64,000 bases of DNA from a virus (Duplodnaviria > Caudoviricetes): positions 2,078 to 66,077 of IMG/VR virus record IMGVR_UViG_3300042344_000673; one strand, given 5' to 3'. How positions within the stretch are numbered: position 1 is the stretch's first letter; each line of letters starts with the position of its first letter. A program made the translations under genes and the position numbers. Positions 1 through 64,000 of this stretch are shown here, in pieces. The notes under the pieces are model-generated. The model was not told where the DNA came from. It saw nothing but the letters and a program-made list of their open reading frames with translations, and searched no databases.

Positions 1-57
1 GTAAACTTGAACTGGTGTGCTAGCCCCCGATATGAAGTCTATTCTTACCTGTGTCAT
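1..57 (-). CDS. 5' end of a gene running off the left edge (MTQVRIDFISGASTPVQVY...), probable virion protein
   Basis: ATG at 57-55 overlaps the TGA of the upstream gene (ATGA coupling); frame open to position 1. Confidence 0.65.
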   Translation of the reverse strand, partial: MTQVRIDFISGASTPVQVY

Positions 58-6083: not shown

Positions 6084-6106
6084 ATTTTCTTTTTTTTATA
6101 AATAGT

Positions 6107-14567: not shown

Positions 14568-14652
14568 TAAAGACTTTTGTAATAAATAGTTTATGTGTAA
14601 TTTTTAAAGAATACACACAACTCAATTATAGTCGTAATAATTGAATAATAAA

Positions 14653-16491: not shown

Positions 16492-16496
16492 CTATG

Positions 16497-16970
16497 TTAA
16501 ATATTAACAATAACAAAATCACTTTCAGCAAACGTTTGTCCGTTTGTAGAATAGTCAATTCTTATTTTTGCCGTATACTCAGAGGTCCCTTTACCAGGCA
16601 CTCTGAGGATATCATATACTCTGGTATCACCAGGTTGTGACCTATAAGTTAGGGTATCAACTTCATCAGCAGAATCGGCAGGTTCTATGGTTATTTTATT
16701 AACCAAAAGGTTCGGCATAAATCTTTGTATAGAATCTCGAATATCGGCCTCAATGGCTGAAAAGGTTAAACCATCAAACGGTTCAAACAAAAACTCATAA
16801 AGTCTTGTACCAAACTCTGGTAAGTAATATCTGGCACCTTTCCTTGTTAATAGTAAGTGTGTAAGGTCTGCTCTTATTTGTTGTGCCCTATAGTCTGTGA
16901 CTTGAAGATAATCTCCTTGGAGTGAGTCGGCAAAAGGGAAATTTATCCCATATGTAATTCCATTAGCCAT
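16497..16970 (-). CDS. Baseplate wedge/sheath initiator (T4 gp25/gpW-like)
   Basis: GINFPF...LLLTRKGARYYLPEFGTRLYEFLFEP. Confidence 0.9.
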   Translation of the reverse strand: MANGITYGINFPFADSLQGDYLQVTDYRAQQIRADLTHLLLTRKGARYYLPEFGTRLYEFLFEPFDGLTFSAIEADIRDSIQRFMPNLLVNKITIEPADSADEVDTLTYRSQPGDTRVYDILRVPGKGTSEYTAKIRIDYSTNGQTFAESDFVIVNI

Positions 16971-21063: not shown

Positions 21064-21795
21064 TTAAAATTTAAAAATTTCTTCAATACCTAATTCTTGG
21101 TTTTTATAAAATATTACCATATGGGGATTTTCAGGAGAATTATCAGTAAAGTAATATAACGCCAAAGATAAACGTTCCAAATTGTCGGGACAATTAAGAG
21201 GAGTTGGGTGTCCGTGAAGAGCATTGTCGATGTCGAAAATAACCGCTCTATTGTATATAGGTTCAATTTCAACTTCTTTTTTCCAAGTTTCTTTATTCCA
21301 TAGTTCGAGATTACCCCCATACTCGGTTACCCAATTTTTATTTAAATAAAGTAATAAATTCAATCTTCTATGTTTTTTTGTACCTGGTTGTAAGTTGTAA
21401 TCTTCATGAATTGATAGTGAACCCCCTTTTTTTATTTTGTGAATTCCTCCACCAATCAAATAAGGGTCCCTGAAAAGATTATCTATACCCGTAAGACTTT
21501 GTAAGAATATTAGAAATTCCTTGGAATTTAGATATTCCATTAGAAGATTTGTTATAGGAAGTTTGTTCTTTATTTCTTGAGCGGTCGTGTCATGGTTTGG
21601 ATAATAAAATTTATTAATCTCATGTTCATTCACCCACTCAGTAGTATTATGAAACCAATCTTGATGGTTTTTGATTTCTTCCAAAACATTATCTAATAAA
21701 AATTCAGATAAAAAATTATCAATTATAATGTGAGGATATGGCTTGGCAGATAAAAACTGTGTTCTTAAATTATTCGCCAAATTTAGGTTTATCAT
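21064..21795 (-). CDS. 2OG-Fe(II) oxygenase (prolyl-4-hydroxylase-like)
   Basis: PYPHIIIDNFL, HxD (HED), LNLLLYLN, GGNLELW, HGH, RxS (RLSLA). Confidence 0.88.
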   Translation of the reverse strand: MINLNLANNLRTQFLSAKPYPHIIIDNFLSEFLLDNVLEEIKNHQDWFHNTTEWVNEHEINKFYYPNHDTTAQEIKNKLPITNLLMEYLNSKEFLIFLQSLTGIDNLFRDPYLIGGGIHKIKKGGSLSIHEDYNLQPGTKKHRRLNLLLYLNKNWVTEYGGNLELWNKETWKKEVEIEPIYNRAVIFDIDNALHGHPTPLNCPDNLERLSLALYYFTDNSPENPHMVIFYKNQELGIEEIFKF

Positions 21796-32720: not shown

Positions 32721-33033
32721 AATAATAAAAATAATTTTCCAACGCGCCTTTATAATCCTGTAATGATGGGATGAGCGGGAACGGAATTACCAAAACCGCA
32801 CCATCATAGATATTGTTTTCCATCCCCATGAATATAGGGTTAGCCTGTAATATTAACCAACTATAATAGGGTGAATTATAAAACTGTTGTGATACTTTAT
32901 CTAATCTACTTATACCGACCCTATAAATAAAGGATTTATCGGTTGTTTTGGCTGGTAGTTGAACAAATGGTACCACAGTTTGTTCACCATTAATTAAAAA
33001 CTCATTGTATCTGTTATAATATTGGTAAGCCAT
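32710..33033 (-). CDS. LysM/tail X-like baseplate protein (gp53-like)
   Basis: RLDKVSQQFYNSPYYSWLILQANP...GAVLVIP. Confidence 0.8.
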   Translation of the reverse strand: MAYQYYNRYNEFLINGEQTVVPFVQLPAKTTDKSFIYRVGISRLDKVSQQFYNSPYYSWLILQANPIFMGMENNIYDGAVLVIPFPLIPSLQDYKGALENYFYYYGR

Positions 33034-50253: not shown

Positions 50254-51792
50254 ATGTTAGAAATAGAAAAAAAAATATCACAACTCGAATTTAGGATTTT
50301 AGAGAATCACATAAACAAAGAGAAAGAGTTGTTACTTACAGAAATGAAAAAAATAGGGATTGAAAAACTCCCATATTCTTATTCAGCCCTCAAACAATTT
50401 ATTGACCCTGAAACAATGGATTTCCATTATAATAAACATTATAAAGGATACGTTGATAAATTAAATGATGCCTTAGCTAAGAAAAAATATGGTGATTTAG
50501 AATTAGAACAAATTATCAAATCGATAAGTAGATTTGACAAAACAATCAGAAATAATGCTGGTGGGGCATTTAACCACGCATTGTTTTGGAACATGCTGAC
50601 CCCAAACCCCAAAAAATTAACAGGAATACTTTACGAAAAAATTGTGAAGGAGTTTGGTTCATTCACCTCATTCAAGAAAAAATTCGAAACAGTAGCTAAA
50701 GACAGATTTGGTTCTGGTTGGGTATGGTTGGTTTTGACAGCAAAAAATAAACTTAAGATAATGTCTACCCCAAACCAAGATAACCCATTGATGAATGTCA
50801 TCGAAGGTGGGGGTTTTCCAATTTTAGGATTAGATTTGTGGGAACATGCTTATTATCTGAAATACAAAAACAAAAGAGATGAATATATTTCTAACTTTTG
50901 GAAAGTTGTAAATTGGGATTTTGTGACAAAACTTTATGAAATGAAGACCGAAACCAAGCTTTTGGAAACCCAAGAAATCAGAAAATTAATTAACGAATCT
51001 AAGGAGCCTAAATTTTGTAACCCTAAAGAAACAATATCTTATAAAGCAGTAATAGATAATCCAAAATTGAAAAGAATTTACCAAGACGGTATAACAAAAG
51101 TATTAAAAAAGATATTCGGTGAATTTTGGGTTGAGTCTGAAAAAGGGGAAATGTCTGGATTTTACGGTATCGAATCAGAACAAGGAAGGTCGATTTTGAA
51201 TAACTTGAATACGAATTTCAATACATTTTGTTTACTAACAAAGGCTATTAATAAAGAAATCTTGACAGAAAAACCTGATGGAAGGACCTTTGATTTTTCT
51301 CAAGAAAAAAATAGAACTTTGGAAGAAATGAATAGATTCATCAAAGTTTTAGACATTTTCAGAAAAAGAATTTTCAATAAGAACAACGAGGACTTCATAA
51401 ACATAATAAATGTTTTGAGTAAACTTTGGAAAAGAGGACAGAAGTCTGAAGATAACGCCCTGAAGAAAATGGAAGATTATTTTGGTAAAGACGTAGAAAT
51501 AGAAAAACTCGGAGCTCATGGTAGTAAAAATGATGCTTTGAAAGGTATAGACCTGAAAATCAAACTATCCGGTGATTCTTTCACTGCACAAGTGAAACCA
51601 TATTCTGTTTTTTCTGTTATCAAAGATAAAATTGAATTATTAGATACGGGTAATGTAAAACCTTACGATGTAGACTGGTTGATTTTTATTCAACCAAAAT
51701 CCAATAAAACGTTAATATTTAAGAATAAACCATTGAGTAGTGAAGGACAATACGTTTTTAACGTGGAGTCACTAATTCATGAAATTGAATAA
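50254..51792 (+). CDS. Mn/Fe superoxide dismutase fused to a C-terminal PD-(D/E)XK-like domain
   Basis: LPYSYSAL, HYNKH, FNHALFW, FGSGW, NQDNP, DLWEHAYY; C-terminal E...DALKGIDL...AQVK. Confidence 0.85.
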   Translation: MLEIEKKISQLEFRILENHINKEKELLLTEMKKIGIEKLPYSYSALKQFIDPETMDFHYNKHYKGYVDKLNDALAKKKYGDLELEQIIKSISRFDKTIRNNAGGAFNHALFWNMLTPNPKKLTGILYEKIVKEFGSFTSFKKKFETVAKDRFGSGWVWLVLTAKNKLKIMSTPNQDNPLMNVIEGGGFPILGLDLWEHAYYLKYKNKRDEYISNFWKVVNWDFVTKLYEMKTETKLLETQEIRKLINESKEPKFCNPKETISYKAVIDNPKLKRIYQDGITKVLKKIFGEFWVESEKGEMSGFYGIESEQGRSILNNLNTNFNTFCLLTKAINKEILTEKPDGRTFDFSQEKNRTLEEMNRFIKVLDIFRKRIFNKNNEDFINIINVLSKLWKRGQKSEDNALKKMEDYFGKDVEIEKLGAHGSKNDALKGIDLKIKLSGDSFTAQVKPYSVFSVIKDKIELLDTGNVKPYDVDWLIFIQPKSNKTLIFKNKPLSSEGQYVFNVESLIHEIE

Positions 51793-51810
51793 ATATTGAT
51801 ATTTATAGAT

Positions 51811-52938
51811 ATGGCAGTAATTCCAGAACCAGAAAGAACCAGAATATATACGAGAATCAAACACCTTCTCGGTGCCCCGTTAAGGAGCGTCGAATTAGAA
51901 GATGAAATGTTAGATTCCTTAATGGAACTATCCATCGGTGATTACGAAGAATACGTTCTACAATGGTTAATTGATAGTCAATGGGTTAACTTAGTAAACC
52001 TCAACATGTCTGAAAAATCAGTTGCTCAAGCTTTGATTACTAGGACCATGGATTTCGAACAACAATTTGCCTACTCATATTCTAAAATTGTGGGACTACA
52101 AACTGTGGGACCTTGGGTGTTGAAAAAAGATTATTTTATTCTCGAGGCTAACAAACAAAACTATGAAATCCCTGCTGGACGTGAAGTTAACGAATTACTT
52201 TGGTTCAGTAACCAACCTTGGACAGCATTTGGTTTAGGTGGTGTTGGCGGATTCGGATTTGGTGGAATAGGATTAGGTGCTAATGAAGCCGGATATGCTC
52301 AAATGGGATACCAAGGTTCATATTTTATGATGTCTGGTTTTGACTATTTGATTAGAATGCAAGAAGCCAATATCTTAAATAGAATTTTAGGGGGGTCATT
52401 AACATATAGAATAACGGCCCTTCCTGATGGCAAGAAGAACATTTTCTTATATAATACGCCAGGTGGAAGATTCAATTGGAGCAACTACAGTCTATACGCT
52501 GGTAAAGCAGTTTGGTATTGGTATTATGATGTAAATCCTGATAACAGAGCAGATTGTTTGAAAAATAACCCTGATGTTATTAAGTTACCAACAGATGTTC
52601 CCATCTCTGAATTATCTTGGGAGGACTTGAATGTCCCTGGTCAACAATGGGTTAGAAGATGGTTTACTGCTTATTGTAAAGAAACGTTATCTCGAGTACG
52701 AGGTAAGTACATGGGTAACTTGAAAACTCCTGATACCGAAATTCAAATGGAATATCAGAGTTTGTCAACTGAAGCAAAAGACGAAAAGGCGAAACTTTTA
52801 GAAGAACTCATCGGTGAGAACGGATGGTTGTCAAGACTTAGACCTGAGAAGGTTATGGAGCGAGAGGCATCTATAGCTGAAAACTTAAATAAACAAATGA
52901 AATTCAGAGCGTTCCCACGTCAAATTTATGTAATCTAA
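51811..52938 (+). CDS. Neck/head-tail adaptor protein (gp13-like)
   Basis: LGAPLRSVEL, WVRRWFTAYCKETLSRVRGKY; ATG at 51811 follows TATTTAT. Confidence 0.75.
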   Translation: MAVIPEPERTRIYTRIKHLLGAPLRSVELEDEMLDSLMELSIGDYEEYVLQWLIDSQWVNLVNLNMSEKSVAQALITRTMDFEQQFAYSYSKIVGLQTVGPWVLKKDYFILEANKQNYEIPAGREVNELLWFSNQPWTAFGLGGVGGFGFGGIGLGANEAGYAQMGYQGSYFMMSGFDYLIRMQEANILNRILGGSLTYRITALPDGKKNIFLYNTPGGRFNWSNYSLYAGKAVWYWYYDVNPDNRADCLKNNPDVIKLPTDVPISELSWEDLNVPGQQWVRRWFTAYCKETLSRVRGKYMGNLKTPDTEIQMEYQSLSTEAKDEKAKLLEELIGENGWLSRLRPEKVMEREASIAENLNKQMKFRAFPRQIYVI

Positions 52939-53273
52939 TGGCAATCGTAAGAAGCATACCATCAAGAAGAATTATAAACGGACATTCTATACAAACTTCC
53001 GAAATTTCTGTAGTTTCTGAACTTAATTATAAAACTAACGGAGAGTCTTGCGTTATCATCCGAGGTGTTGAAGAATCTTTCGTTGTATTAGATTCCACAA
53101 CTACTGACCACGTTGTTGTAAAAGCAATGACATACCTCACTGTCACACCTGATGTTGGAAAAATTGACGAAGAATATGATGAACTTGTTATGGACAAATT
53201 TGCCTGTGTTGAATTCAGATTTGCCAACAACAATTGGTATATTCTTTCATCAGACGGATTGAAACAATCCTAA
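52938..53273 (+). CDS. Small beta-rich protein, possible collar/fibre module
   Basis: TAATG-coupled to neck gene; 3' end overlaps the polymerase 3' end. Confidence 0.5.
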   Translation: MAIVRSIPSRRIINGHSIQTSEISVVSELNYKTNGESCVIIRGVEESFVVLDSTTTDHVVVKAMTYLTVTPDVGKIDEEYDELVMDKFACVEFRFANNNWYILSSDGLKQS

Positions 53274-56048
53274 TTTTTGTTCCCAACCATCCTCAGCTAA
53301 TTCGTAAATATAATTCGGACTTAGTCCTCTTTTTTCCCAATAAGATAACTCTTGTTCAGTTATTTGTAGAACGTCCTCTTCAAGTTTATCTTGGTCACCT
53401 TCTTCAAAGGGCATACCGTTGATTAATTCACATTGAGCGTTCGTGAATATACCACGGGATTCTGGGTCTGTTACAATTAAATTGTCTCTAACTTCTTGTT
53501 GAAAGACAACCAATAAAGGTTCGATTCTTTTGTTGAAAGTTGCGATAGCTCGAGGAACATTGTACTCACCTGTCATCTCTGGATTAGTTTCCAAAATATT
53601 AGAATTAAGCATATAACAATTAACAATTACACCATCAGAAATTGGTTTGTAATTTGGATTGAGGTTTAAGTTGTATTCGTTTGTTTCCTTAATTTGTTTA
53701 GCGGTCATTTTTTGTACATCACCTTGAGACGCCTTTTTACCATTGTTTACGTACATAATAACATCCCCAAGATTAACATTCAAACCCTCTTGTATTGCTA
53801 ATTCCATATGCGCCATACGACTCATACTATTTCCAGCCTTAGTTTTTTGTGTTAACCTTTTTTTGTAGTCATCTAAGGTTAGTTTAACTTTTGCTCGTTG
53901 GGCAATTTTAGATAATGGAACTTGTTGGTCAAATATCTTTTTCAGATACTCGTAGTAATATTCAATGAAGTTTTTACCATCACCATTCAACAAAAGTTTA
54001 ATTCCTTTGTCCAAGAATTCTTCAATATATAAAGGGAGTTTTTTTGATTTAATGGAATTGCCAGTCAACTTTATCTTTCCCTTAGCATCCATAACTGCGT
54101 AATTTTTTCTGGCAAGATTTATACAGGATGGCCATACACCATCGGTATCTAACGCCATTTCACCTCTCATGAAAATATCATTATATTCTGCCACGTCAGC
54201 GTCGGGACCAGTATATTCTTTTCCTACTTTAACTTTCCAGTTCAAACCCCGGCCAACGTAACGATGATTTTCTACTCCTTCAGGACTTGAAAAGTTTACA
54301 CCGTCCGTATCCATAACAAGTGGAACGTATCCTTTTGACATAAAGAATTTAATCATCTGTCTCAAGTACTGACGACCTGTACATGTAATTTGTTCACCCA
54401 TGTACATATCACCCCAAGCATAAACCTGTGGTGCTGACAACGCACCGAACATTGAGTTAATGAAAATCTTGATTGGAAGTTGTTTGTTTGAATATGAAGA
54501 AGAAAGTGCTGGGTCAGTTGTATAATACTCTTCGGCAAGTTGTTTATACTTAATACGAGTATCACGGAAATACTTCAACATTCCTTTCATCGCACCTGTC
54601 ACATCACACTGTGGGAATACATCGTGTACGAGCTGAATAGAGGGGTATAGAGACGAGAAGTCGAGCTTGAGTACATTCTTACTATACCCAACCTTAAGTA
54701 GTCGAGAAAGACCTCCTACGAAGTCTGTCTTGTCTTGTTTGGCCGGGATTGCTAAACCGTGTTTATATGACCATGCCAACATTAACATTTTCCAAAGGGT
54801 TGCGGTTCCCATAGTTGATACCCTTTCATATGTTGTTGGAATCATTGAAGCAAGTAGGAATGAGGCTTGATTGAACTCTTTATCCACCGCTAATGTTTCT
54901 TCCAAGTCATCGTCAAGATATCTTTCGACTAAATTATCTCCGGTCGTTTTTAAATAAATGTCTGAACGACTTTCACATATAGTGTCAATCTTAGTATCTT
55001 GTCCAACTTTGCGGTAGTTACCGTTCTGAATATTCAACCAATACTCTTCTTTTTTTTCATACATTTTTCCAATATGGCCGTGGTCAATGTAAACTCGGTC
55101 TTTGGCTTCTTTGCCAATAAATGTGGTTATGTATTTAAGTCCCGCAGCTTTGATATTCGAATTGATTGCCTGAGCTCTTCTGACTGCGTGAATAATATCA
55201 ATAACATTATACCCCCAAATTGAAGTCTGAGTATAATCCTCCACCTCATTTGCCAATTTCAATATTGATTCTTTTCTTGTGTACGAATGTTGGGGGTGAA
55301 GTGATTTTATCGACTTCCTCATATCTATTCCTAATCTCTGACCTCTCTCGAACAACCAATGCCAGTCGAAGTTTGCTGAGTTGTAACCTCCAATGATTGA
55401 AGGTTTTATTTGGTCGATAACATTAAAAAACTCGATGATTGCTCCCTTTTCTTGGGACTCGTCCAAACACTCAATGACTCTGTGAAAACCTTTGTTTGTT
55501 TTGATTCCAATCATAAAAATTCGACCATCTTTAGGGTCCAAAGCATTTGTCTCCAAGTCGAATACCAAACGTGTCACATCATCATAATCAGTATATCCTT
55601 TGAATAGCCTTTTTTCCTTTGAAACAAGATATTGTTCAACGGGGGGTAAAACCATAACTTTATCTTTGGTTTTTTCTCCCCAAGGGTCACAACCACCGTC
55701 ACGGAAAAATTGTATAAGCTCACGATATCCCTTCAGAGATTTTACCATAAAGGTTAAACCTTTCTCAAGTCTTTCGTCACCTTTAGTCTCGAGCTTATCA
55801 ATAACAATTCCATATTTTGTCATAGCCTCTTTTTGAGCCATTTTGGAGTTGTTATAGAAGTTGAGACCTCTTAGGTCACCAACCCAAGCAAAAGGGATGA
55901 ATGTATCTTTACGAATTTCTTTTCCTTTACCAGGAATTTCTTTGATTTTAAAAATGGAGTTTGAAACGTAGTCAAACTCGATAGCAACTATAAATTCTTC
56001 GGGGTCGTTTCCATGTAGGAACGACTCAATTTCTTGAGGGTCAATCAT
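53250..56048 (-). CDS. Family B DNA polymerase with 3'-5' exonuclease
   Basis: FDLET, GYNSANFD, DFSSLYPS, KIFINSMFG, MDTDG, RKNYA. Confidence 0.95.
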   Translation of the reverse strand: MIDPQEIESFLHGNDPEEFIVAIEFDYVSNSIFKIKEIPGKGKEIRKDTFIPFAWVGDLRGLNFYNNSKMAQKEAMTKYGIVIDKLETKGDERLEKGLTFMVKSLKGYRELIQFFRDGGCDPWGEKTKDKVMVLPPVEQYLVSKEKRLFKGYTDYDDVTRLVFDLETNALDPKDGRIFMIGIKTNKGFHRVIECLDESQEKGAIIEFFNVIDQIKPSIIGGYNSANFDWHWLFERGQRLGIDMRKSIKSLHPQHSYTRKESILKLANEVEDYTQTSIWGYNVIDIIHAVRRAQAINSNIKAAGLKYITTFIGKEAKDRVYIDHGHIGKMYEKKEEYWLNIQNGNYRKVGQDTKIDTICESRSDIYLKTTGDNLVERYLDDDLEETLAVDKEFNQASFLLASMIPTTYERVSTMGTATLWKMLMLAWSYKHGLAIPAKQDKTDFVGGLSRLLKVGYSKNVLKLDFSSLYPSIQLVHDVFPQCDVTGAMKGMLKYFRDTRIKYKQLAEEYYTTDPALSSSYSNKQLPIKIFINSMFGALSAPQVYAWGDMYMGEQITCTGRQYLRQMIKFFMSKGYVPLVMDTDGVNFSSPEGVENHRYVGRGLNWKVKVGKEYTGPDADVAEYNDIFMRGEMALDTDGVWPSCINLARKNYAVMDAKGKIKLTGNSIKSKKLPLYIEEFLDKGIKLLLNGDGKNFIEYYYEYLKKIFDQQVPLSKIAQRAKVKLTLDDYKKRLTQKTKAGNSMSRMAHMELAIQEGLNVNLGDVIMYVNNGKKASQGDVQKMTAKQIKETNEYNLNLNPNYKPISDGVIVNCYMLNSNILETNPEMTGEYNVPRAIATFNKRIEPLLVVFQQEVRDNLIVTDPESRGIFTNAQCELINGMPFEEGDQDKLEEDVLQITEQELSYWEKRGLSPNYIYELAEDGWEQKLGLFQSV

Positions 56049-56145: not shown

Positions 56146-56523
56146 TTAACAACAGGCTTGTTCGGCAATAAAACTATCCTGTATGTTTATATAAAGTTGT
56201 TCACGTATAGGTAAAATTAAATTACCTTCATCGTTTTTGATTAGAAATTGTCCTTCGTATCTCCCAGGTGTATCTGTATCCATCGAATTAAATTGGAAAT
56301 AAACGTAGTATTCTGTTGTTGCTCCGTCGGGTAATAATAAAGGCACAATGTAACAAGGAGCTCCAACAATTTTTGGAATACCTGTATAATAATCAACCAT
56401 TGAGAAAAAAATGGTTGAAACTTCTAAAGCGGCCATTAACTCCAAGTAGCCCGCTCTTCCGTCTTTAACAACCTGCATTTTGAGAACAGGCAACGTGGCA
56501 TTTTTTTTAATGTAGAATTCCAT
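56146..56523 (-). CDS. BppU N-terminal-like (fibre/baseplate anchor) domain protein
   Basis: FYIKKNATLP...YFQF...DTDTPGRYEGQF...LILP...LYINI. Confidence 0.65.
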   Translation of the reverse strand: MEFYIKKNATLPVLKMQVVKDGRAGYLELMAALEVSTIFFSMVDYYTGIPKIVGAPCYIVPLLLPDGATTEYYVYFQFNSMDTDTPGRYEGQFLIKNDEGNLILPIREQLYINIQDSFIAEQACC

Positions 56524-56539
56524 AACAATAAATATATTG

Positions 56540-58216
56540 TTATGACTCTTTACGAAGTTCCCTACTATAATGTTCGAATCTATTGTGTTCCGTTGGAGTC
56601 AACAATAAAATACCAGGTTTGATTTCTTCTTTTTTAGTGAGCTGATAGATGTGACTCATCCAAGTCTGTTCGAATGGATGTGCCCAAGTTGTATCCAAGA
56701 ACATCTTTTTATTTCCTGTTTTAGACACTATTTGAGGCCAATTACAGTAATAAACATCACCTGTCGCATACGGTACACCTTTATGAGACAAAATATTTTT
56801 GAATTCCATTTTCGGGGCATTAGGGTCCAATCCCATCTCAGGTAATCTATTTTTCCCAGGCCAAAACTTTTCTCTCACATTCTGAGGAACATTATACCAA
56901 GACCACTGAACACTGTTATCACCAAAAAACTCTGTATAATTTAATTTTATAAAGTCAAAATTTTCCTTTTTGATAATTTCTAAAGACTTAGTGTATAGGT
57001 TTGGTACTTTTCTATTGAACCCATTCCTACAAACCTCTCCGTCTTTACAGAAGAAAAACATATCGTCCTCGAAAAAAAAGTAAAAATCTAAATCTGGTTC
57101 ATCCTCAAAATGTTCCGCAATCCATTGTCTACCTCCACAAATACCTAAATTATCTTTTTTTATGTGTTCGAAGCCATATTCGTGACAAATACGAATATAA
57201 TCAAAAGTTGTTGATGTATCTGTAGAATTATCTAATAAAAACTTTTTCGTTTTTAAAATAAAGTCTTTATCGTATTCCATCATAGAATCAATCAATGTTT
57301 GGAATTGTTTTGGACTATTGAAACCTATAACATAAAGGCCAACCTTACTAATATCCAAATTTGAGACGCCTACCGTAGATGTTTCATTTTTTGGAACAAG
57401 TTTGTCATCTTTCAAATCTTCAAAAAACTTACCCACCAATCCGTTAGATTCAATTTCGAAGTAGTTTATTAAATCAGCATGTTTGTAACACATAATACTG
57501 AAAATAGATTCTTCAGTACCCATGTAACCTTCCTCTAAAGTTGATTTTAACAAACCGTAATATATTCCGTTAATGTTTGATATGGAATCTTTAGGACCAC
57601 CAAAAAATCCTCCTCTAGCAACCTTATTAACCTTAGAGCCGGCAATTGAGTTTAGTTTTGAATATTCAAATCCATGGATTTCATTTTCAGCATCATACGG
57701 GAAACAAATGAAAGAAAATTTAGAAATATATTTTGATAGTTTATCTAAAACTTTATCGTGTGTGAAATATCCCGGATGAACTGTATTTGTTAATCCACCG
57801 TCAATCCAAAATAGATATTCAGAATCAAACCTATCAAGGATTTTAGCGTCGTTAAGGAGAAACACTTTTGACATCACAAGTGGGTTGTAATTCTCCAATC
57901 TAGCTTGGGTAGAATCTTTCAACCAACCCGATAAGTTTTTCCAACTGTCCTTATTTCTAATTTCTTGAATCAATGGAAAAAATTCATTATTTCTGAACCA
58001 AGAGAGAGGTCTTTCTATAAACTGAGTATTTTTTTCAGTTCTTTTTTTAAAAACAATTTCTTTTAATTCTTTATCACCATAAATAATCATATTGACATCC
58101 ACATTGAGTAGACTGTCAAACTTATCCAAATAGTGTTGATAAGGTCTTGACCAACCTTCTGAGAGGGATTCTCGTCCGATATCCCAAATACCTGTAACAA
58201 GTGTTATATTACTCAT
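56540..58216 (-). CDS. Two-domain glycosyltransferase (HtrL/YibB-like plus GT-A domain)
   Basis: TLVTGIWDIGR, YLFWIDGG, GGFFGG, TEESI; second half NLGICGGRQW, FFEDDM. Confidence 0.75.
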   Translation of the reverse strand: MSNITLVTGIWDIGRESLSEGWSRPYQHYLDKFDSLLNVDVNMIIYGDKELKEIVFKKRTEKNTQFIERPLSWFRNNEFFPLIQEIRNKDSWKNLSGWLKDSTQARLENYNPLVMSKVFLLNDAKILDRFDSEYLFWIDGGLTNTVHPGYFTHDKVLDKLSKYISKFSFICFPYDAENEIHGFEYSKLNSIAGSKVNKVARGGFFGGPKDSISNINGIYYGLLKSTLEEGYMGTEESIFSIMCYKHADLINYFEIESNGLVGKFFEDLKDDKLVPKNETSTVGVSNLDISKVGLYVIGFNSPKQFQTLIDSMMEYDKDFILKTKKFLLDNSTDTSTTFDYIRICHEYGFEHIKKDNLGICGGRQWIAEHFEDEPDLDFYFFFEDDMFFFCKDGEVCRNGFNRKVPNLYTKSLEIIKKENFDFIKLNYTEFFGDNSVQWSWYNVPQNVREKFWPGKNRLPEMGLDPNAPKMEFKNILSHKGVPYATGDVYYCNWPQIVSKTGNKKMFLDTTWAHPFEQTWMSHIYQLTKKEEIKPGILLLTPTEHNRFEHYSRELRKES

Positions 58217-59090
58217 ATATTCTGTTAAATTCTTCTAAAATTCTATAAAAACTTTTATTTCTTTCGAAAAGTGTTGGGTCTGTTCCAGGGGGACAATTGT
58301 CAGGACACCACCAAATATCAAAATGTTTTCTCGTAAATAATTCAGGGTGATTATAATACATAAGAGTCATTATAATTTCTTCGAAATAAACCCTTTCCAC
58401 AGGACTAATTTTGAAAACATAATCTTCGAAAATTGTTACCACATTATCCCATAAATCTCTATGACCACCAAACATACCACCTATAATGTGGATGTCTCTT
58501 TGATATTTGTTATACCATTTAGGGTCTACTGTACCCGACCAAAAGTTTCTGTCATTTTCTTTACCTAATATCAAAAATTTATTTTCAGAATCAGTCACTA
58601 TATTCTTCAAGAAATCATTATTAAATAATGAACTCTCATAATATCTCCTCTGTGGATGTTGACTTCCGGTTAAATATTTGTTCGGTATCAGACCACAGTG
58701 TGACAATCCAGCATCAATCCAAAAGTAATAATCATACGATTTATCCTCATTCCACCACCAAGAAAACTTTGCCCATTGGATTTCAATACATCTATCACCT
58801 CTTTTAGCAGAATCATAGTCTTTATATTTCTCGAGAATTTCTTGGAACTTTGTTTTTTTCAAATCATAAATTTTGAATTCTAACTTTTCTTCACTGATAC
58901 CATGCTCTTGGTAGAAAAAATTTTTCAATCTTTCTATTTCTCTTTCTGAAGTATAACATAAGAAATCGGCGTCTGTCATTTTTAATAACGACAAAAGACT
59001 ATATTGATAGTGGCCTCCTCTCGAAGGTCTCCCACCTAATTCAGTTCCTGACAGGTCGCTATATATACATGTGATAAATTTAACTCTCAT
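58209..59090 (-). CDS. HtrL/YibB-like glycosyltransferase
   Basis: YYFWIDAGLSH, IIGGMFGG, FEEIIM; resembles the N-terminal half of the neighbour. Confidence 0.7.
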   Translation of the reverse strand: MRVKFITCIYSDLSGTELGGRPSRGGHYQYSLLSLLKMTDADFLCYTSEREIERLKNFFYQEHGISEEKLEFKIYDLKKTKFQEILEKYKDYDSAKRGDRCIEIQWAKFSWWWNEDKSYDYYFWIDAGLSHCGLIPNKYLTGSQHPQRRYYESSLFNNDFLKNIVTDSENKFLILGKENDRNFWSGTVDPKWYNKYQRDIHIIGGMFGGHRDLWDNVVTIFEDYVFKISPVERVYFEEIIMTLMYYNHPELFTRKHFDIWWCPDNCPPGTDPTLFERNKSFYRILEEFNRIYE

Positions 59091-59814
59091 ATCTGTAGTC
59101 CTTATGAACTTTTTGTAATTTGATGTTTTTATTTTCTTGTAAATTTAAATATTCCCTTGGAATTTTTACCGGTGAATACTGATTCCAATTATAAGTTTGG
59201 GTATAAAAATTATTATAAACTCCGCCAGAAACATCTGACCAGTCACTAATTTGAGGACCAATTGGTAAAATTGGAACATAGCTCTGATAAACAGAGGTCA
59301 CATTTTGATAAATGAAATCATCAATAGCGTAGTATCCAATTTTCGATGGTTCCTCGATTTCTAAAACCTTGTCATAAATGGACTCGTGGTACATTATCAT
59401 GTTTGTTGCGAATATACCTCTATGATGTTCTTCTTTAGGAGGAAGATTAGTGGCATCCAAAAACCATTTAGAATTTGTACTTAGGTTTATTGGACGATTA
59501 ATCGTTGGTGCTAAATTTATAACCGCAAATTCAATCCCTGATGATTCCGTTTCAATTTGTTGAACTAAAGACTTTGCGTAAGGCATGATTGTACAATCAT
59601 CCTCGATAACTAGAACCTTTTTATACCCACGGGCTTTAGCCAATTTTATTATTTCCAAATGAGATTTTGTACAACCCACATGATTATTTAAATCGATTGC
59701 GGGAAAATACTCGTAGTCCCAACCGATATATTCCATTTCTTTTTTTATCGATTCAAACCTATCTTTTCTTCTTTCTAAATTAACAACAAATTTCGGTGCG
59801 TCTGAAAAAATCAT
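59080..59814 (-). CDS. Glycosyltransferase family 25-like
   Basis: VVNLERRKDR, GCTKSH, LVIEDD, AIDDF. Confidence 0.85.
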   Translation of the reverse strand: MIFSDAPKFVVNLERRKDRFESIKKEMEYIGWDYEYFPAIDLNNHVGCTKSHLEIIKLAKARGYKKVLVIEDDCTIMPYAKSLVQQIETESSGIEFAVINLAPTINRPINLSTNSKWFLDATNLPPKEEHHRGIFATNMIMYHESIYDKVLEIEEPSKIGYYAIDDFIYQNVTSVYQSYVPILPIGPQISDWSDVSGGVYNNFYTQTYNWNQYSPVKIPREYLNLQENKNIKLQKVHKDYRYES

Positions 59815-61082
59815 TAGCTTACATGATTGTGATTTAATTGTCCCGTCAGTCTCTCACACCAACCTTTCGATTCAGAGTGTGGCCAAACAACCCAATATTT
59901 TGGTAAAACATCAGTTTGGAATTCTCTCCATATTTTACAATACTTATCGGGGTCGTTCATCATTCTTGTGATTTCCGATTTATCGGCATCTTTTCTGAAG
60001 AGGGTCTCATCGTTGGGACCATGGAAAGCAACAACCCAAAAATCGTAGTCTTTTTCAGGGACACTTGAGTAACCTACGTCTATACAATGTTTGTAAACAG
60101 AAGCGAAATCCTTTTTCCAATCTTCCTCAGTTTCATAGTTGTATGGGTTAGGGGGGTAATTTTTGTCTAAAGTATATCTTTGAACTGCTCTTTTCTCGAA
60201 AAGTAAACCTGAATATTTTTCATAATCTCTGAGCGTTCTCACGGGTCCAAAACCGAAAGGACCATCATGACCCTCTTGAGTTTCATTATCCATACCGAAT
60301 AGCTTTCTATTTAACAAGTGTGAAACTCTATTTTTTTCTCCCCATGTTCTATCATCGTCCCACTGTTTTGTTCTACCCTTACGAGTATATTCATGATACA
60401 CAACAGGGATGTGAGGGTGAAAAAGGTCATAACCCCATGTATATGCTCTAGCTGCGATTGAAATTTCTTCACCGTGGAAATAATATTCAGGGTTATGTTG
60501 AACCTCTTTAGCAAAACTTCCCAATGTAAAACAGAAATGTGCCGAGTAAAATCTGGCAGTTACGGGTTTGGTCATTTCACGCCATCCAGGGATTGTCTCA
60601 GGTAAAAAGAATACCGCACCTTCAGGTATAAATCTATCAAATACCATTCTCCAAGCGTCTTGAGCTCTTCCCGCTGGGTCATTATCAGGGTCGAAAGATG
60701 GTACATAACCCGTAAGTAGAGGTTTTTTGTATCCATCTTTTTGTAACCCCTTTATCATATCGATTAGGATTACATCCCAATCTTTAACGAATCTCATGTG
60801 AGAATCTATTTGTAATGTATATTTTTCATTTTTATATAGTTGTTGAACTAAATGTCTTGCCCAACAAACCCCTTTTGCCTCTTCGTAAGGAATGTCTAAA
60901 ATTCTGAACCTTTTATCATCTCTCCACTCATCAAGGTTGTCAAATCCGTCCGATTCTGAATATTGTCTCGCAATACCTAAAACTAAGTTTTCGGGTTTCT
61001 TGGCATTTGCTAACATATCTTTTATTGTTAGGACTAACTGTGGGTCGCGATAACTAGCAATCTGTATAAAAATTTTACTCAT
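59814..61082 (-). CDS. GT60-like polypeptide/hydroxyproline N-acetylglucosaminyltransferase
   Basis: IFIQIASYRDP, AKGVCWAR, QIDSHMRF, FHGEEI, GYDLFHP, YHEY. Confidence 0.85.
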   Translation of the reverse strand: MSKIFIQIASYRDPQLVLTIKDMLANAKKPENLVLGIARQYSESDGFDNLDEWRDDKRFRILDIPYEEAKGVCWARHLVQQLYKNEKYTLQIDSHMRFVKDWDVILIDMIKGLQKDGYKKPLLTGYVPSFDPDNDPAGRAQDAWRMVFDRFIPEGAVFFLPETIPGWREMTKPVTARFYSAHFCFTLGSFAKEVQHNPEYYFHGEEISIAARAYTWGYDLFHPHIPVVYHEYTRKGRTKQWDDDRTWGEKNRVSHLLNRKLFGMDNETQEGHDGPFGFGPVRTLRDYEKYSGLLFEKRAVQRYTLDKNYPPNPYNYETEEDWKKDFASVYKHCIDVGYSSVPEKDYDFWVVAFHGPNDETLFRKDADKSEITRMMNDPDKYCKIWREFQTDVLPKYWVVWPHSESKGWCERLTGQLNHNHVS

Positions 61083-61104
61083 ATAAATTATTTGGTATAA
61101 AAAT

Positions 61105-61132
61105 AAAAAACCCCCTACAAAAGTAGAGGGTT
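61105..61132 (-). terminator. Intrinsic terminator after mucin-like gene
   Basis: Minus strand AACCCTCTAC-TTTT-GTAGGGGGTT then T run. Confidence 0.75.
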
Positions 61133-61157
61133 GTTTTTTATTTATGAAAATTTTATT

Positions 61158-64000
61158 TTAACATGGGGAACCAAATGGTGTTGAAAGTCCGCCATTATCG
61201 ATAATAACACAAGGACCACAACCCCCTGACTCATTGGTATAATATAAACCTCCTCCATTGAATGGGTTGGTCAAATTTATATCCGTAAAGAACTGAGTAA
61301 CAAGTTGCCAATCACTATTCGCACCATAAACCGTTTGTGTCAGAGATACTGGGTCAATTTGACATAAAGTGTCACCTGATGAAATTAAGAATGCAGTTGG
61401 ATTAATCTGAGCACTTATATAAACAGGTAACCCAGGAGTCCAATTTGTGGTTGCTGATTGTATCAACACGGTATTACCTGTGAATCCTGTAATTGGAGGA
61501 ACACTGATTCCTGTACCGAACACAAATCCATCGCCTGCAACACCTGGAGGTGTTCCTGTATTAGCTGACCAATATTTGAATGCATTTGTATCACCAGAGT
61601 AAATTGCTGTACTTCCTGTTTGACTCATTGTAATAGTAATACTTTGTCCAGTAAATTGTGAGAAGTAACTTGTTCTATCTATTCCGTCGGAATCAATAGA
61701 ATTGAAGTAGATTGCTCTACCAATACTTGTCATTTCGTTAGGGTTTGTTGTCCCTGAACTAGAGCCTGCTATTTCTGTCATTATCGTATTACCTGTAGTT
61801 GGGAAGTTGTAAGGTAATACTATTAAATTAAATGAATATCCTGTTACTGGTTCAGGTGTAACACTTGGTGTTGGCGTTAATGTTGGAGTAACTGATGGTG
61901 TTCCAGTATTAGTTACACTTGGTGTTGGCGTACTTGTAGTTGTTGGTGTAGGTGTTACTAAAGTTGCCTCACATGCTGCACAGTTAACATAGAAAAGAAG
62001 TGGTGTTGCACCGTCTGTTGGAGTTGCCACGGTCTTCTCAACAATTCTATAACATCCACTTGGTGTTCCTCCTGTGAATGTGAAATTGAATACGTCACCA
62101 GATGCTAATGTCGATGGTCCTAAATCAGCAACTAATACGTTCAAGTTGGTACATCCCGAAATTGTGTATGTAGTAACCGAACTTAAGTCAGTTGTAGTTG
62201 GTGTTGGTGTGTTCGTTGGTGTTTCACTAGGTGTTTCACTTGGGGTTTCAGTTATTGTTGGAGTTGGTGTTTGAGTTAAAGTTGGTGTAGGGGTAGGTGT
62301 TGGTGATAATGTTCCTATAACACAAATATCAACAGCCCCTTCATTAGGAGTGAAAAGAGGGAAGAATACATGTAATGGTTGTGTTACAGCGTTGGTTGAT
62401 GTGTAAAGTAATGTTGAATTATAATAATACTTTACGCTTGTTCCATCATAATCCACTTTCCACACATCAGATGATGAAACAACAGTACCGACATTTAAAA
62501 CGGCAACTTGACCACCGTTTTCATATATTTCAATTTGGTCACTATTATACAGGTAAATACCATATGACGTATCCTCATATGTGCTGCCAGGGGTAGCGGT
62601 TGGGTTGTAAGAGAATCCACCCATTAAAATATTACCATTCGCAGAAGTTTGGAAGGTTACGGAAACAGGACCAGTAAATGTCTCTAAAGAATATGCCGAT
62701 GAATCCCATCCTGATGTTCCATCATTTATCGCACTATTACTTGTTGTTGTAGCATTGTTACCTATGAAAGTAAATGTTTCACAGTTTAAAATTGGTGATG
62801 GAGTTGGAGTTTGTGTTGATGTGTTTGTTGGTGTAGGTGTAGAGGTTGATGTTTCGGTATTTGTTGGTGTAGGAGTAGATGTTGATGTTTCGGTATTTGT
62901 TGGTGTAGGTGTAGAGGTTGATGTTTCGGTATTTGTTGGTGTTGGTGTCGGTGTTTCAGTATTCGTTGGAGTCGGTGTTTGAGTTGGTGATGGGGATTCA
63001 ATAGTTAATGTTAATGAGTCTTCAGTAGCCCCGGAACCCCAACTATAAACATAAACTCCAGGTGTCAAATTCATCGAGGATATTGTTTGACCTGTGAACG
63101 TCATACTTGCCGATATAAATGTACCTGACGTGTATCCTGTTGGTACCATCAGACTAGTTTCTGTTAGATTAAAAATACCGAAGAAGTCACCAGAACCAAA
63201 ATCTTGTGCTTGACCCGGTCCTGTACCGAAATTAGCAGGTTTGCTAAATGTTGCTCCAGTGTAAGCGTCTGATGATGTTGTTGTTGTTGGTCCACAACCA
63301 AATAATGCCATAGAAGGTCCTATTCCTCCGAGTGTTGGTTGTGTAAATGTTTCCGAATATGTTAAATCAGTAAGATTGAATGAACCAGAACCAGACATCA
63401 CAACATCGGACCCGCTTTCAAATATTGTCGCTGTGAACCCTGAAGATGGAATCGGTGTTTCAGTCGGAGTTGGTGTATTTGTGGGAGTTTCACTGCTTGT
63501 TGCTGTAGGTGTTGGTGTTTCTGTTTCAGTCGGTGTTGGTGTGCTAGTTGGTGTCACACACTCAACAGGTAAACCTATATTAGTATAACCAAGGGCGGTT
63601 GTAGCCGTAAAACCTGTTGATAGATAATCATAAATGACATCGCCAGGTGCTGGTATAGTACAACATTCGTTACTATAAGCATTCCAGAAGAAAGTAGGGT
63701 CTGGAGGAATATACGGGTAGGGTTCGGGAGCAAAGCCACCTAAAGTCCAAATGACTGTTGGAGTTCCTCCTGTAGAGTTACAAAAACTTTCTATGTCAGG
63801 ATATATTGTTATTGAGTATTGAACAGATGTACCACTCAAACAAGGAGTTGTGGGTGTGGGTGTTGGAGTTTCAGTGCCTGTTGGAGTAGGTGTTTCAATT
63901 ATCGAAGTTCCCGTAGGTGTTGGAGTTTCTGTTTCAGTTGGTGTAGGAGTTGGTGTCTCAATTACGGAGGTCCCAGTAGGAGTAGGTGTTTCAGTGTTTG
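61158..64000 (-). CDS. Thr/Pro-rich mucin-like multidomain protein (probable fibre), 5' end beyond the window
   Basis: Frame stays open from 63839 to the window end (NTETPTPTGTSVIETPTPTPT...); at least five TP-rich linkers separate globular domains. Confidence 0.85.
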   Translation of the reverse strand, partial: NTETPTPTGTSVIETPTPTPTETETPTPTGTSIIETPTPTGTETPTPTPTTPCLSGTSVQYSITIYPDIESFCNSTGGTPTVIWTLGGFAPEPYPYIPPDPTFFWNAYSNECCTIPAPGDVIYDYLSTGFTATTALGYTNIGLPVECVTPTSTPTPTETETPTPTATSSETPTNTPTPTETPIPSSGFTATIFESGSDVVMSGSGSFNLTDLTYSETFTQPTLGGIGPSMALFGCGPTTTTSSDAYTGATFSKPANFGTGPGQAQDFGSGDFFGIFNLTETSLMVPTGYTSGTFISASMTFTGQTISSMNLTPGVYVYSWGSGATEDSLTLTIESPSPTQTPTPTNTETPTPTPTNTETSTSTPTPTNTETSTSTPTPTNTETSTSTPTPTNTSTQTPTPSPILNCETFTFIGNNATTTSNSAINDGTSGWDSSAYSLETFTGPVSVTFQTSANGNILMGGFSYNPTATPGSTYEDTSYGIYLYNSDQIEIYENGGQVAVLNVGTVVSSSDVWKVDYDGTSVKYYYNSTLLYTSTNAVTQPLHVFFPLFTPNEGAVDICVIGTLSPTPTPTPTLTQTPTPTITETPSETPSETPTNTPTPTTTDLSSVTTYTISGCTNLNVLVADLGPSTLASGDVFNFTFTGGTPSGCYRIVEKTVATPTDGATPLLFYVNCAACEATLVTPTPTTTSTPTPSVTNTGTPSVTPTLTPTPSVTPEPVTGYSFNLIVLPYNFPTTGNTIMTEIAGSSSGTTNPNEMTSIGRAIYFNSIDSDGIDRTSYFSQFTGQSITITMSQTGSTAIYSGDTNAFKYWSANTGTPPGVAGDGFVFGTGISVPPITGFTGNTVLIQSATTNWTPGLPVYISAQINPTAFLISSGDTLCQIDPVSLTQTVYGANSDWQLVTQFFTDINLTNPFNGGGLYYTNESGGCGPCVIIDNGGLSTPFGSPC
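62824..62942. repeat. In-frame 36-nt tandem repeat (about 3.3 copies) encoding TETSTSTPTPTN
   Basis: tttgttggtgtaggtgtagaggttgatgtttcggta; copies 1 and 3 identical, copy 2 has two synonymous changes. Confidence 0.9.

Follow-up and report, generated by a model that had tools for sequence, protein, structure and literature searches.

There are only a few demonstrated cases of phages glycosylating their particles with enzymes that they encode. Giant viruses glycosylate their virion surface proteins with machineries of their own, independently of the host, as in the capsid of chlorovirus PBCV-1 and the fibrils of Mimivirus. The characterised members of glycosyltransferase family GT60 are polypeptide alpha-GlcNAc transferases acting on hydroxyproline or Thr: Skp1 Gnt1 of Dictyostelium and Toxoplasma acts on hydroxyproline, and the mucin-type enzymes of Trypanosoma cruzi and Dictyostelium act on Thr. 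In mycobacteriophages, the acceptors reportedly are C-terminal parts of the capsid and tail-tube subunits (work of Freeman et al. 2023). [quoted passage not shown] This suggestion is earlier than the preliminary description of the locus presented here, which had taken GT60-initiated glycosylation in a phage to be undescribed, and it narrows that claim to novelty.

The locus lies in a stretch of 64,000 nucleotides (the window), part of a 66-kb fragment from a freshwater jumbo phage of ~320 kb whose clade is very abundant in the environment. Its six ORFs, all on the minus strand, lie where the preliminary description placed them. A TP-rich ORF, TP946 (61158..64000, called as 61158..>63998; 946 aa present, 5' end open), lacks its N-terminus because the window stops at the contig end. 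After a 75-nt gap comes GT60 (59814-61082, 422 aa), which has 1 nt in common with GT25 (59080-59814, 244 aa). GT25 overlaps p293 (58209-59090, 293 aa) by 11 nt, p293 overlaps p558 (56540-58216, 558 aa) by 8 nt, and a 16-nt gap separates p558 from p125 (56146-56523, 125 aa). The four GT genes thus overlap at all three junctions, as had been described.

GT60 belongs to PF11397 ('GlcNAc'; E 1.5e-66, 225.7 bits, cut-off 21), aligning in two stretches to profile positions 2-43 and 96-350 of 352, and also matches phrog_24687 (E 3.3e-162). It is 45.7% identical to its XacN1 homologue, with a range of 44.7-49.4% over XacN1, Xoo-sp13 and the Stenotrophomonas phages CM1/RAS14; sequence and profile searches returned no PDB relative. 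Residues D93, H95 and H230 are invariant across 35 diverse homologues (34-49% identity) and the 'Q-x-D-S-H' sequence is kept in Xoo-sp13 and XacN1. By analogy with GT27, we take the D-x-H and the distal His to be a GT-A metal/nucleotide motif. GT60 has no hydrophobic segment (KD19 maximum 0.88), nor has any other GT protein of the operon, indicating soluble enzymes able to work on phage proteins synthesised in the cytoplasm. GT60 is presumed to be the initiating polypeptide glycosyltransferase.

The constant companion of GT60 is p558, found beside or near it in 80/80 close loci and in most distant ones. Residues 3-252 of p558 match HtrL_YibB (PF09612; E 1.3e-15, 58.2 bits, cut-off 24.1), but the score against the YibB equivalog TIGR02192 is 67.4 bits versus a cut-off of 264.9, indicating a distant member of the HtrL/YibB family and ruling out a YibB orthologue. 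The protein consists of an HtrL_YibB-like N-domain (1-279) and a C-domain (290-558) in which E383-D384-D385 are invariant in the alignment. In the AF2 model (pLDDT 91.9) both halves adopt GT-A folds: residues 2-268 resemble BoGT6a (Z 13.4, rmsd 3.4, 194 aligned) and residues 286-556 B4GALNT1 (Z 15.8, rmsd 3.4, 201 aligned). Foldseek and VIA match p558 to GT-A and dual GT-A enzymes; one of its fold matches is Mimivirus R699.

The putative GT-A protein p293, a single HtrL-like domain, has no match in Pfam, PHROG or NCBIfam, and its tie to the HtrL/YibB family runs through p558 only: it aligns to the HtrL-like profile of p558 (hhalign 95.6%, E 1.3e-8, 54 columns) and to the N-terminal part of the p546 homologue in XacN1 (tblastn E 3e-5), and is 26-29% identical to p286 of Xoo-sp13/XacN1. 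GT25 matches PF01755 (E 6.9e-10, 39.6 bits, cut-off 24), with a best stretch covering only profile positions 67-118 of 199; its best PDB sequence matches are COLGALT1, at E 0.26-0.39 only. The GT families had been named correctly, by profile for GT60, GT25 and p558 and by homology to p558 for p293. The count of five GT domains is borne out in terms of fold and homology, since p558 has a GT-A fold in each half of its model and p293 is homologous to the HtrL-like domain of p558. Of the label 'two HtrL-like extenders', the likeness to HtrL applies to p558 through Pfam and to p293 through the p558 profile, but not in the sense of a YibB orthologue; extension of a glycan is their putative role.

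Comparison with relatives revised the picture of a four-gene unit. GT60 and p558 form a conserved core, found in phages as well as in certain bacterial chromosomes, whereas GT25 and p293 are replaceable, a homologue being absent in 20/80 and 17/80 close relatives, respectively. The cassette is swapped for a carbamoyltransferase, FkbM and other methyltransferases, a GT10-type fucosyltransferase or a HAD-nucleotidyltransferase (sugar-nucleotidyltransferase) fusion. In XacN1, the p546 and p286 homologues follow the gene order of the window, and tblastn does not match the intervening 247-aa ORF to GT25 of the window.

Such swaps resemble surface-polysaccharide loci, HtrL_YibB and GT25 are by name LPS-biosynthesis families, and a comparative paper on jumbo phages, in the text available, reads phage GT clusters as surface-polysaccharide modification (PMC7824862). 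The module might then build or remodel a host surface glycan (LPS core, O-antigen, capsule or EPS), for instance to block superinfection or alter adsorption, with the TP neighbours unrelated. We consider this possible, though unlikely. The GTs carry no membrane segment, p558 falls far below the YibB equivalog cut-off, and a general family scan of the ORFs in the window's GT region and of 10 neighbours at each of two bacterial loci (L172, L178) revealed no flippase, polymerase or initiating transferase. Also left unexplained would be the virion glycoproteins of XacN1 and the association with TP linkers described below, both in position and among complete genomes.

Another option is that the GTs hypermodify phage DNA, as glycosylated hydroxymethyl- or hydroxy-pyrimidines. 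The operon abuts PolB in the window and the module lies ~6 kb from the DNA polymerase gene in Xoo-sp13 and XacN1; p558 has a weak match to phrog_842 (beta-glucosyl-HMC-alpha-glucosyltransferase, E 0.0066), and GT-A enzymes do glycosylate phage DNA (bioRxiv 10.1101/2023.12.21.572611). The available text of published papers on DNA GTs, that preprint included, nevertheless names no GT60, GT25, HtrL or carbamoyl groups. Each of five genomes (5/5) carries one PF00303 gene, none of them near the GT operon, and the two PF00303 proteins examined pass the thymidylate-synthase equivalog (302.8 and 220.1 bits versus a cut-off of 108.35). Both keep the LPPCH and PFNI motifs, which we take to mark the dUMP type. 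No ThyX was found, and Tet_JBP was found in 0/5 genomes in a search run without a positive control. Thus a sugar-hypermodification pathway, sought as a dedicated ThyA-type hydroxymethylase or hydroxylase, or as a C5-MT with a TET-type oxygenase, alongside the GTs, was not found, and the module also occurs in bacterial chromosomes beside TP proteins. Sequence comparison gave no support for DNA glycosylation, which we regard as very improbable.

The gene upstream of GT60 points to a different substrate. TP946 contains 7 TP linker segments between Cys-containing globular modules over its 946 residues, in line with the earlier count of at least five. Its ORF holds 21 [ST]P runs; among the window's 37 other stop-to-stop ORFs of at least 150 aa, none holds more than 1, indicating that the runs are far from chance and no general trait of this phage's proteins. 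Loci L010 and L011 carry stretches 93-94% identical to TP946, and the full protein there is 1371 aa long. TP946 matches phrog_15511 (unknown function; E 6.9e-11) and no Pfam family, and family searches with TP946 and its relatives returned no structural-protein family. TP946 is the presumed glycan acceptor, and proteins of this kind are probably displayed on the virion.

The preliminary description had proposed a test of whether GT60 and TP-rich ORFs co-occur in related phages, and three comparisons support a link. At loci dereplicated at 90%, a TP ORF falls in the 0-500 nt bin upstream of GT60 in 25/86, compared with 3/56 (~5%) at -10 kb and about 9/76-80 at +5 to +8 kb. The window clade offers 59 loci at which the upstream DNA is long enough to judge; at 56 of them a TP-run ORF in the orientation of GT60 has its end no more than 500 nt from that gene, and these ORFs are not mutually alignable. 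All nine complete GT60-positive phage genomes (9/9) contain TPTPTP-coding stretches, at 5-29 sites each against 0-1 for a reversed-pattern control, while none of nine GT60-negative phages does (0/9, including 4 Xanthomonas/Stenotrophomonas phages; Fisher p = 4e-5); the nine are not independent events, since GT60-positive genomes may share ancestry. Reciprocally, PF11397 is encoded in 9/69 viral contigs sampled for (TP)5 versus 0/63 sampled for (PA)5 (p = 0.003), and, among contigs of at least 60 kb, in 7/15 versus 0/12.

The association is incomplete. PF11397 is absent from 60/69 of the (TP)5-sampled contigs, including 5/6 of those at least 90% complete, so TP linkers do not require GT60. When lineages are counted as 80% clusters, a TP ORF lies within 500 nt upstream of GT60 in only 12/50; the other 38 are in keeping with a host-glycan role. 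By the TP criterion used here, 25/50 lineages have no TP ORF within 10 kb of GT60, and the divergent lineages G044 and G039 have none within about 8 kb. Four bacterial contigs (L171, L172, L178, L179) also have a TP-rich ORF, divergent, directly upstream of GT60. The two of these loci that were annotated, L172 and L178, combine GT60 and p558 with sugar-nucleotide genes or a 2OG oxygenase, and the scan of 10 neighbours each found no polysaccharide-export families. The bacterial TP neighbours look exported, since reading by eye suggests Tat-like signals and, for L178, a C-terminus that is T9SS-like; this is a setting different from a virion. Together, these data show a statistical association between GT60 and TP-linker genes, if an incomplete one.

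The enzymes might instead target phage proteins of another kind (capsid, tail tube or decoration), the TP neighbours being an incidental hypervariable region; mycobacteriophages and chloroviruses would be the models. We hold this to be quite improbable. TP adjacency is limited to certain lineages, virion glycosylation has its precedent in mycobacteriophages (cited in PMC12582341), and the XacN1 glycoproteins are not tied to genes in the paper's available text (PMC5852040). However, the genome-level and reciprocal associations are specific to TP linkers, and bacterial loci likewise pair the module with TP proteins. The TP sites of XacN1 itself lie in ORF232-237, ORF325 (a 3313-aa protein) and ORF384; ORF317/ORF323 are named as baseplate proteins (PMC5852040), and the ORF numbering suggests that ORF325 stands beside baseplate genes.

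At the other end of the operon, p125 had been called BppU-like. No Pfam, PHROG or NCBIfam family matches it at E <= 0.01, so the name finds no backing in sequence families and reflects fold similarity only. Its AF2 model (pLDDT 80.6) is an Ig-like beta-sandwich whose top three PDB matches in VIA are phage baseplate entries (Z 8.2-8.6, versus ~7.5 for generic Ig domains): 80alpha (Z 8.6), NF5 (Z 8.2) and residues 18-126 of the TP901-1 chain 4v96_AA (Z 8.4, rmsd 3.1 A, 97 aligned), a 299-residue chain that we take to be BppU. A BFVD 'BppU domain protein' matches as well (E 2.3e-5, TMq 0.57). The modelled fold thus resembles the N-terminal domains found in baseplate and tail proteins of phages (BppU_N-like), and in five relatives (L158, L145, L164, L165, L148) the p125 domain forms the N-terminus of a TP-linker protein.

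We give about an even chance to the reading that the operon is a phage-encoded module for cytoplasmic protein O-glycosylation. Soluble GT60 would add the first sugar to hydroxyl-bearing residues within the Thr-Pro linkers that modular phage proteins contain. From the characterised GT60 enzymes, we infer this sugar to be alpha-GlcNAc; the acceptor would most simply be Thr, possibly hydroxyproline in the window clade. p558, always associated, would then extend the glycan, and the swappable middle cassette, here GT25 and p293, would tailor it. As acceptors the module would use the hypervariable TP-linker proteins whose genes lie directly upstream (TP946 here) and at other places in the genome, and the resulting coat may stiffen and protect linkers probably displayed on the virion. 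Comparison of relatives suggests, short of proof, that the enzymes coat TP linkers with sugars. Of the original mucin-type proposal, the GT families and the link between GT60 and TP linkers endure; the conserved core narrows to GT60 and p558, the idea is not entirely new, and p125 is BppU-like in fold only.

The hydroxyproline option draws on a PF13640 oxygenase in the window (21064-21795), whose best PDB matches are prolyl hydroxylases, at E 0.0017-0.0042 only. Genomes G001 and G002 have 3 such oxygenases each and Xoo-sp13, XacN1 and RAS14 have 0; in the bacterial locus L178 one adjoins the TP protein. A bolder version, to which we assign a low probability, sees GT60 and p558 as a primer and polymerase pair on Thr-Pro linkers. 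In the window clade GT60 might use hydroxyproline supplied by a prolyl-hydroxylase-like 2OG oxygenase of the phage itself, by analogy with the Skp1 pathway, and p558 might alternate two active sites to build a repeating-disaccharide chain, like LARGE1 and the chondroitin and heparosan synthases. Abundant freshwater jumbo phages would then bear proteoglycan-like fibres, the swappable cassette would diversify the polymer, and exported TP proteins of Bacteroidota and further bacteria would be modified by the system as well.

GT60 is represented by at least 6889 protein clusters (90% identity) and 334 confirmed viral loci. If the glycosylation module acts as proposed, mucin-like O-glycosylation, with a family so far known from protist enzymes, would be common among abundant jumbo phages of the environment, with versions of the pathway in bacterial chromosomes, and would account for the XacN1 virion glycoproteins. 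GT60 together with a two-domain GT-A protein would predict glycosylated TP linkers, an annotation rule serving thousands of 'hypothetical' modular phage proteins, and the module's soluble enzymes could be put to use in bacteria to glycosylate peptide linkers.

Among known systems, those of giant viruses belong to eukaryotic viruses and use other GT sets, the likeness to p558 being one of fold only (9-13% identity). Mycobacteriophages modify their own virion proteins in the cytoplasm with phage-encoded GTs, as proposed here, but they are small temperate or lytic siphoviruses of Actinobacteria with other GT families and no TP-linker modular proteins. The two-GT-A-domain architecture of p558 is common to LARGE1, K4CP chondroitin polymerase, heparosan synthase 2 and LH3/COLGALT1; Foldseek E values of 5e-12 to 1e-7 and Z above 13 for both domains stand against low whole-chain TM-scores (0.22-0.28) and 8-13% identity, and a polymerising activity of p558 is only putative. 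The protist GT60 enzymes belong to the same Pfam family, PF11397, with the D-x-H and later His in common; Gnt1 is likewise soluble, and Thr/Pro-rich acceptor-like sequences are associated in both cases. The window type is, however, encoded by tailed phages and bacteria and always paired with a two-domain GT-A protein, which the protist pathways do without. The XacN1 group (XacN1, Xoo-sp13, CM1/RAS14) differs in having a carbamoyltransferase after GT60, with GT25 undetected, a T4-like DNA polymerase that the window's PolB does not match, and its nearest TP gene about 3 kb beyond the module rather than directly upstream of GT60; its genomes do hold many TP-linker genes, and their homologues of p293 and p558 are arranged as in the window. 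The system presented here would be a variant of known virus-encoded protein glycosylation.

Six ORFs lie on the minus strand from position 64000 down to 56146, as judged by ORF calling on the window. One encodes TP946, a Thr/Pro-linker protein of 946 amino acids (61158-64000, minus strand) whose ORF is open at the contig end. The other five, all on this strand, encode GT60 (422 aa; PF11397, E 1.5e-66, which we take to be the Pfam counterpart of CAZy GT60), GT25 (244 aa; PF01755, E 6.9e-10), p293 (293 aa; no family match, HtrL-like by profile alignment), p558 (558 aa; HtrL_YibB match over the first 252 residues, E 1.3e-15) and p125 (125 aa; no family match). Three junctions overlap, by 1, 11 and 8 nt. 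TP946 has seven Thr-Pro (TP) linker segments between globular, Cys-containing modules, and 21 [ST]P runs compared with at most one in each of 37 other long window ORFs. The overlapping junctions, the linker segments and the excess of [ST]P runs thus bear out the preliminary description, in which glycosyltransferase (GT) genes sit beside a Thr/Pro-linker protein.

The enzymes of the operon were examined by homologue alignment and predicted models. GT60 residues D93, H95 and H230 are invariant in 35 homologues of 34-49% identity, and neither a single-sequence search nor a 35-sequence profile search of the PDB returned a relative. The p558 model (pLDDT 91.9, with 28 homologues behind it) has two domains. 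Residues 2-268 match GT6-type GT-A enzymes (BoGT6a, Z 13.4), and residues 286-556 match the GT-A enzymes B4GALNT1 (Z 15.8), POMGnT1, GnT-I and TarP; E383-D384-D385 in the C-terminal domain is invariant in the homologue alignment. We rejected p558 as a YibB orthologue, since it scores 67 bits against an equivalog cut-off of 265 bits, and regard it as a distant family member. Profile alignment with hhalign (95.6%, E 1.3e-8) makes p293 a homologue of the HtrL-like domain. Searches of Pfam and NCBIfam gave no match for p125, p293 or the TP proteins, and an ESM Atlas search with TP946 residues 403-560 returned nothing beyond unnamed clusters and an SPRY lead below threshold (0.88). A hydropathy scan found no hydrophobic segment in any of the operon proteins, so all the operon enzymes should be soluble and cytoplasmic.

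To learn about the correlation between GT60 and Thr-Pro proteins, we scored TP-run content rather than homology of the upstream ORFs, because those of the window clade are too divergent for alignment, only 13 of 80 close loci showing any TP946 match under SEG filtering. A TP ORF was defined by at least two runs of at least five residues; a stricter first criterion (at least three runs and T+P of at least 0.22) had overlooked TP-linker ORFs in the GT60 loci L103-L105. In the window clade, 59 loci extend 1.5 kb or more upstream of GT60, and in 56 of these a co-oriented TP-run ORF ends within 500 nt of it. Once loci were dereplicated at 90% GT60 identity, a TP ORF covered the 500 nt next upstream of GT60 in 25/86 loci, compared with 3/56 at -10 kb; none lay over the GT genes, and at +5 to +8 kb the share was about 12%. 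When lineages were defined as 80% clusters, a TP ORF adjoined GT60 in only 12 of 50, and two divergent GT60-positive contigs (G044 and G039) lack any TP ORF closer than about 8 kb to GT60. Adjacency is therefore frequent but not general.

The tie was also apparent for whole genomes. A TPTPTP-coding pattern occurs at 5-29 sites per genome in all nine GT60-positive complete genomes (the Xanthomonas jumbo phages Xoo-sp13 and XacN1, the Stenotrophomonas jumbo phage RAS14 and six IMG/VR genomes) and in none of nine GT60-negative phages (two each of Stenotrophomonas and Xanthomonas, plus five large phages), while the reversed-pattern control gave 0-1 sites. The Fisher test yields p = 4e-5 for GT60-positive genomes that are probably not independent of each other. 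Four of the nine lack a TP ORF at the GT60 locus by the stricter criterion; in one of these (G006, locus L105) TP sites lie directly upstream of GT60. Reciprocally, we sampled searchable viral contigs picked solely for a (TP)5- or (PA)5-coding stretch, and detected PF11397 in 9 of 69 (TP)5 contigs versus 0 of 63 (PA)5 contigs (p = 0.003). Among contigs of at least 60 kb the counts were 7/15 and 0/12, respectively, and PF11397 was absent from five of the six near-complete (TP)5 contigs.

The TP sites of XacN1 were located in ORF232-237, which are six paralogues, and also in ORF325 (3313 aa) and ORF384 (2823 aa). Some 3 kb separates ORF325 from the GT module, and the number of this ORF is near those of ORF317 and ORF323, named as baseplate proteins in the part of the XacN1 paper available to us (PMC5852040). 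The same part reports at least two glycoproteins in XacN1 virions and proposes the phage GTs ORF328 and ORF334 as their makers (PMC5852040); ORF334 is the GT60 homologue. We consider it about evenly balanced that the module O-glycosylates the TP linkers of modular phage proteins. Glycosylation of other virion proteins by the same module appears quite improbable.

The protein p125 is modelled as an Ig-like sandwich (pLDDT 80.6) whose best three PDB matches (VIA) are phage baseplate entries, those of 80alpha (Z 8.6), TP901-1 (Z 8.4; chain 4v96_AA, residues 18-126, rmsd 3.1 A) and NF5 (Z 8.2), scoring just about one Z unit over generic Ig domains. BFVD matches include a 'BppU domain protein' and minor tail, tail-fibre and baseplate proteins. 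In five relatives the p125 domain forms the N-terminus of a protein bearing TP linkers, so the GT genes have TP-linker-type genes on both flanks. L011, the nearest relative that has a full copy, carries an upstream cassette of three TP-linker proteins. The first, of 737 aa, carries a C-terminal TP linker followed by a small C-terminal domain; those of 1371 and 410 aa, encoded consecutively at 4520-8635 and 8693-9925, both start MNC.KY..KN.G and have in common an N-terminal domain, about 60 aa long, for which no family match was found.

GT60 homologues are very numerous: clustering at 90% identity leaves no fewer than 6889 groups, and at 50% identity there are 4545 representatives. In deposited phage records GT60 occurs in 4 of 50,697, all jumbo phages of Xanthomonas or Stenotrophomonas. 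The gene order GT60 ... p558 - p125 - PolB (family B DNA polymerase) is kept across 80 close IMG/VR loci with GT60 82-94% identical, of which 20 lack GT25 and 17 lack p293. Replacing cassettes encode a HAD-nucleotidyltransferase fusion, FkbM and other methyltransferases, a GT2-like protein or a GT10 fucosyltransferase; in two close relatives such tailoring genes occupy the GT25/p293 slot at 11270-16940 (L035) and 2755-7792 (L048). The middle of the operon is thus a diversifying cassette. Farther out, among 80 less closely related viral loci and 21 from bacterial assemblies, the sole constant companion of GT60 is p558, on either side, often accompanied by a NodU/CmcH-type carbamoyltransferase; Xoo-sp13 and XacN1 have the order GT60 - carbamoyltransferase - p286 - p247 - p546. 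A swappable tailoring cassette, like the GT family names, agrees with remodelling of host-envelope glycans. We regard this as unlikely, since it leaves both the TP association and the XacN1 virion glycoproteins unexplained, and membrane-associated or export components were not seen among the scanned proteins.

The association with TP proteins can be followed into bacterial chromosomes, where the module also adjoins them. On a 1.3-Mb contig of Jiulongibacter sediminis (L172) the module, at 4949-15151, encodes a TP protein, a second GT60, UDP-glucose dehydrogenase, an epimerase/dehydratase, GT60, a carbamoyltransferase and a methyltransferase-HtrL-GT fusion, flanked by HNH and DUF2357/PD-(D/E)XK genes. 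On a Lewinellaceae MAG contig (L178; module at 7374-12887) a TP/ST-rich protein gene is followed by a PF13640 2OG oxygenase gene. In both, the TP/ST-rich protein gene is divergent from GT60 and p558, and its product has a Tat-like signal peptide, with a T9SS-like C-terminus in L178 (both read by eye). Many of the closest non-viral GT60 matches (64-71% identity to the window) are on short MAG contigs among L168-L186, labelled Saprospiraceae, Bacteroidia, Chitinophagia and Melainabacteria; such contigs may be phage sequence binned in error and may hint at a Bacteroidota host.

With respect to a hydroxyproline (Hyp) route, L178 is the only one of 21 bacterial loci with a 2OG oxygenase beside the TP protein. 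In the other loci, tblastn with seven oxygenase queries detected none near GT60 except weak matches in L161 and L163. The window encodes a 243-aa 2OG-Fe(II) oxygenase (21064-21795, minus strand; PF13640, E 2.2e-18), whose best PDB matches are weak (prolyl 4-hydroxylase, E 0.0017; HIF prolyl hydroxylase, E 0.0042) and which sits amid replication genes for a 5'-3' exonuclease, a RecA-like protein and a gp32-like protein. Two GT60-positive IMG/VR genomes (G001 and G002) have three PF13640 genes each, and Xoo-sp13, XacN1 and RAS14 have none. Judging from this gene content, Thr rather than Hyp would be the simpler general acceptor.

The source record has 66,077 bases (window, bases 2078-66077) and 22% completeness by CheckV; complete genomes of close relatives measure 317-326 kb, so the window represents part of a jumbo phage genome. 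Its other genes include baseplate-wedge, ribonucleotide reductase, DnaB, gp32-like, 5'-3' exonuclease, family B polymerase and SNF2 helicase genes. PolB (53250-56048, minus strand) is 22-26% identical to Salinibacter and Nostoc/Anabaena phage polymerases, and a sequence search found no match to it in XacN1-type phages. The XacN1 and Xoo-sp13 polymerase is T4-like, hence the GT module is common to phages with different replication genes. The window also encodes a 512-aa protein (50254-51792, plus strand) that joins an Fe/Mn superoxide dismutase (residues 37-226) to about 280 C-terminal residues without annotation, and three very large minus-strand ORFs without TP linkers, of 2264 aa (25926-32720), 1695 aa (33033-38120) and 1633 aa (9666-14567). 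Weak structural hints were obtained for a 380-aa ORF (51796-52938, plus strand; phrog_211 head-tail adaptor Ad2, E 7.6e-9) and a 716-aa ORF (54-2204, minus strand; Hoc-like head decoration, E 0.00097).

That the module's GTs glycosylate DNA is very improbable. Hydroxymethylase and TET markers were sought and gave no support: each of five genomes has a single ThyA-family gene, both ThyA-family genes examined score as true thymidylate synthase, profile searches of the genomes detected no ThyX, and a search run without a positive control detected no TET-type enzyme. Published DNA-GT pathways, in the portions accessible to us, rely on other enzymes.

Chloroviruses, mimiviruses and mycobacteriophages are known to glycosylate virion proteins with enzymes of their own. 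For XacN1, glycosylation of virion proteins by phage GTs has already been suggested, according to the available part of the paper (PMC5852040). The part of the literature covered yielded nothing linking GT60 to phage protein glycosylation; nor did we find there the enzyme's GT60 identity, its invariable pairing with a two-domain GT-A protein, a statistical tie of GT60 to Thr-Pro linker proteins, or a report that it is abundant in environmental jumbo phages and occurs in bacterial chromosomes. Among known enzymes, the whole p558 chain, as modelled, matches the two-domain proteins LH3, Mimivirus R699, LARGE1, the chondroitin polymerase K4CP and heparosan synthase 2.
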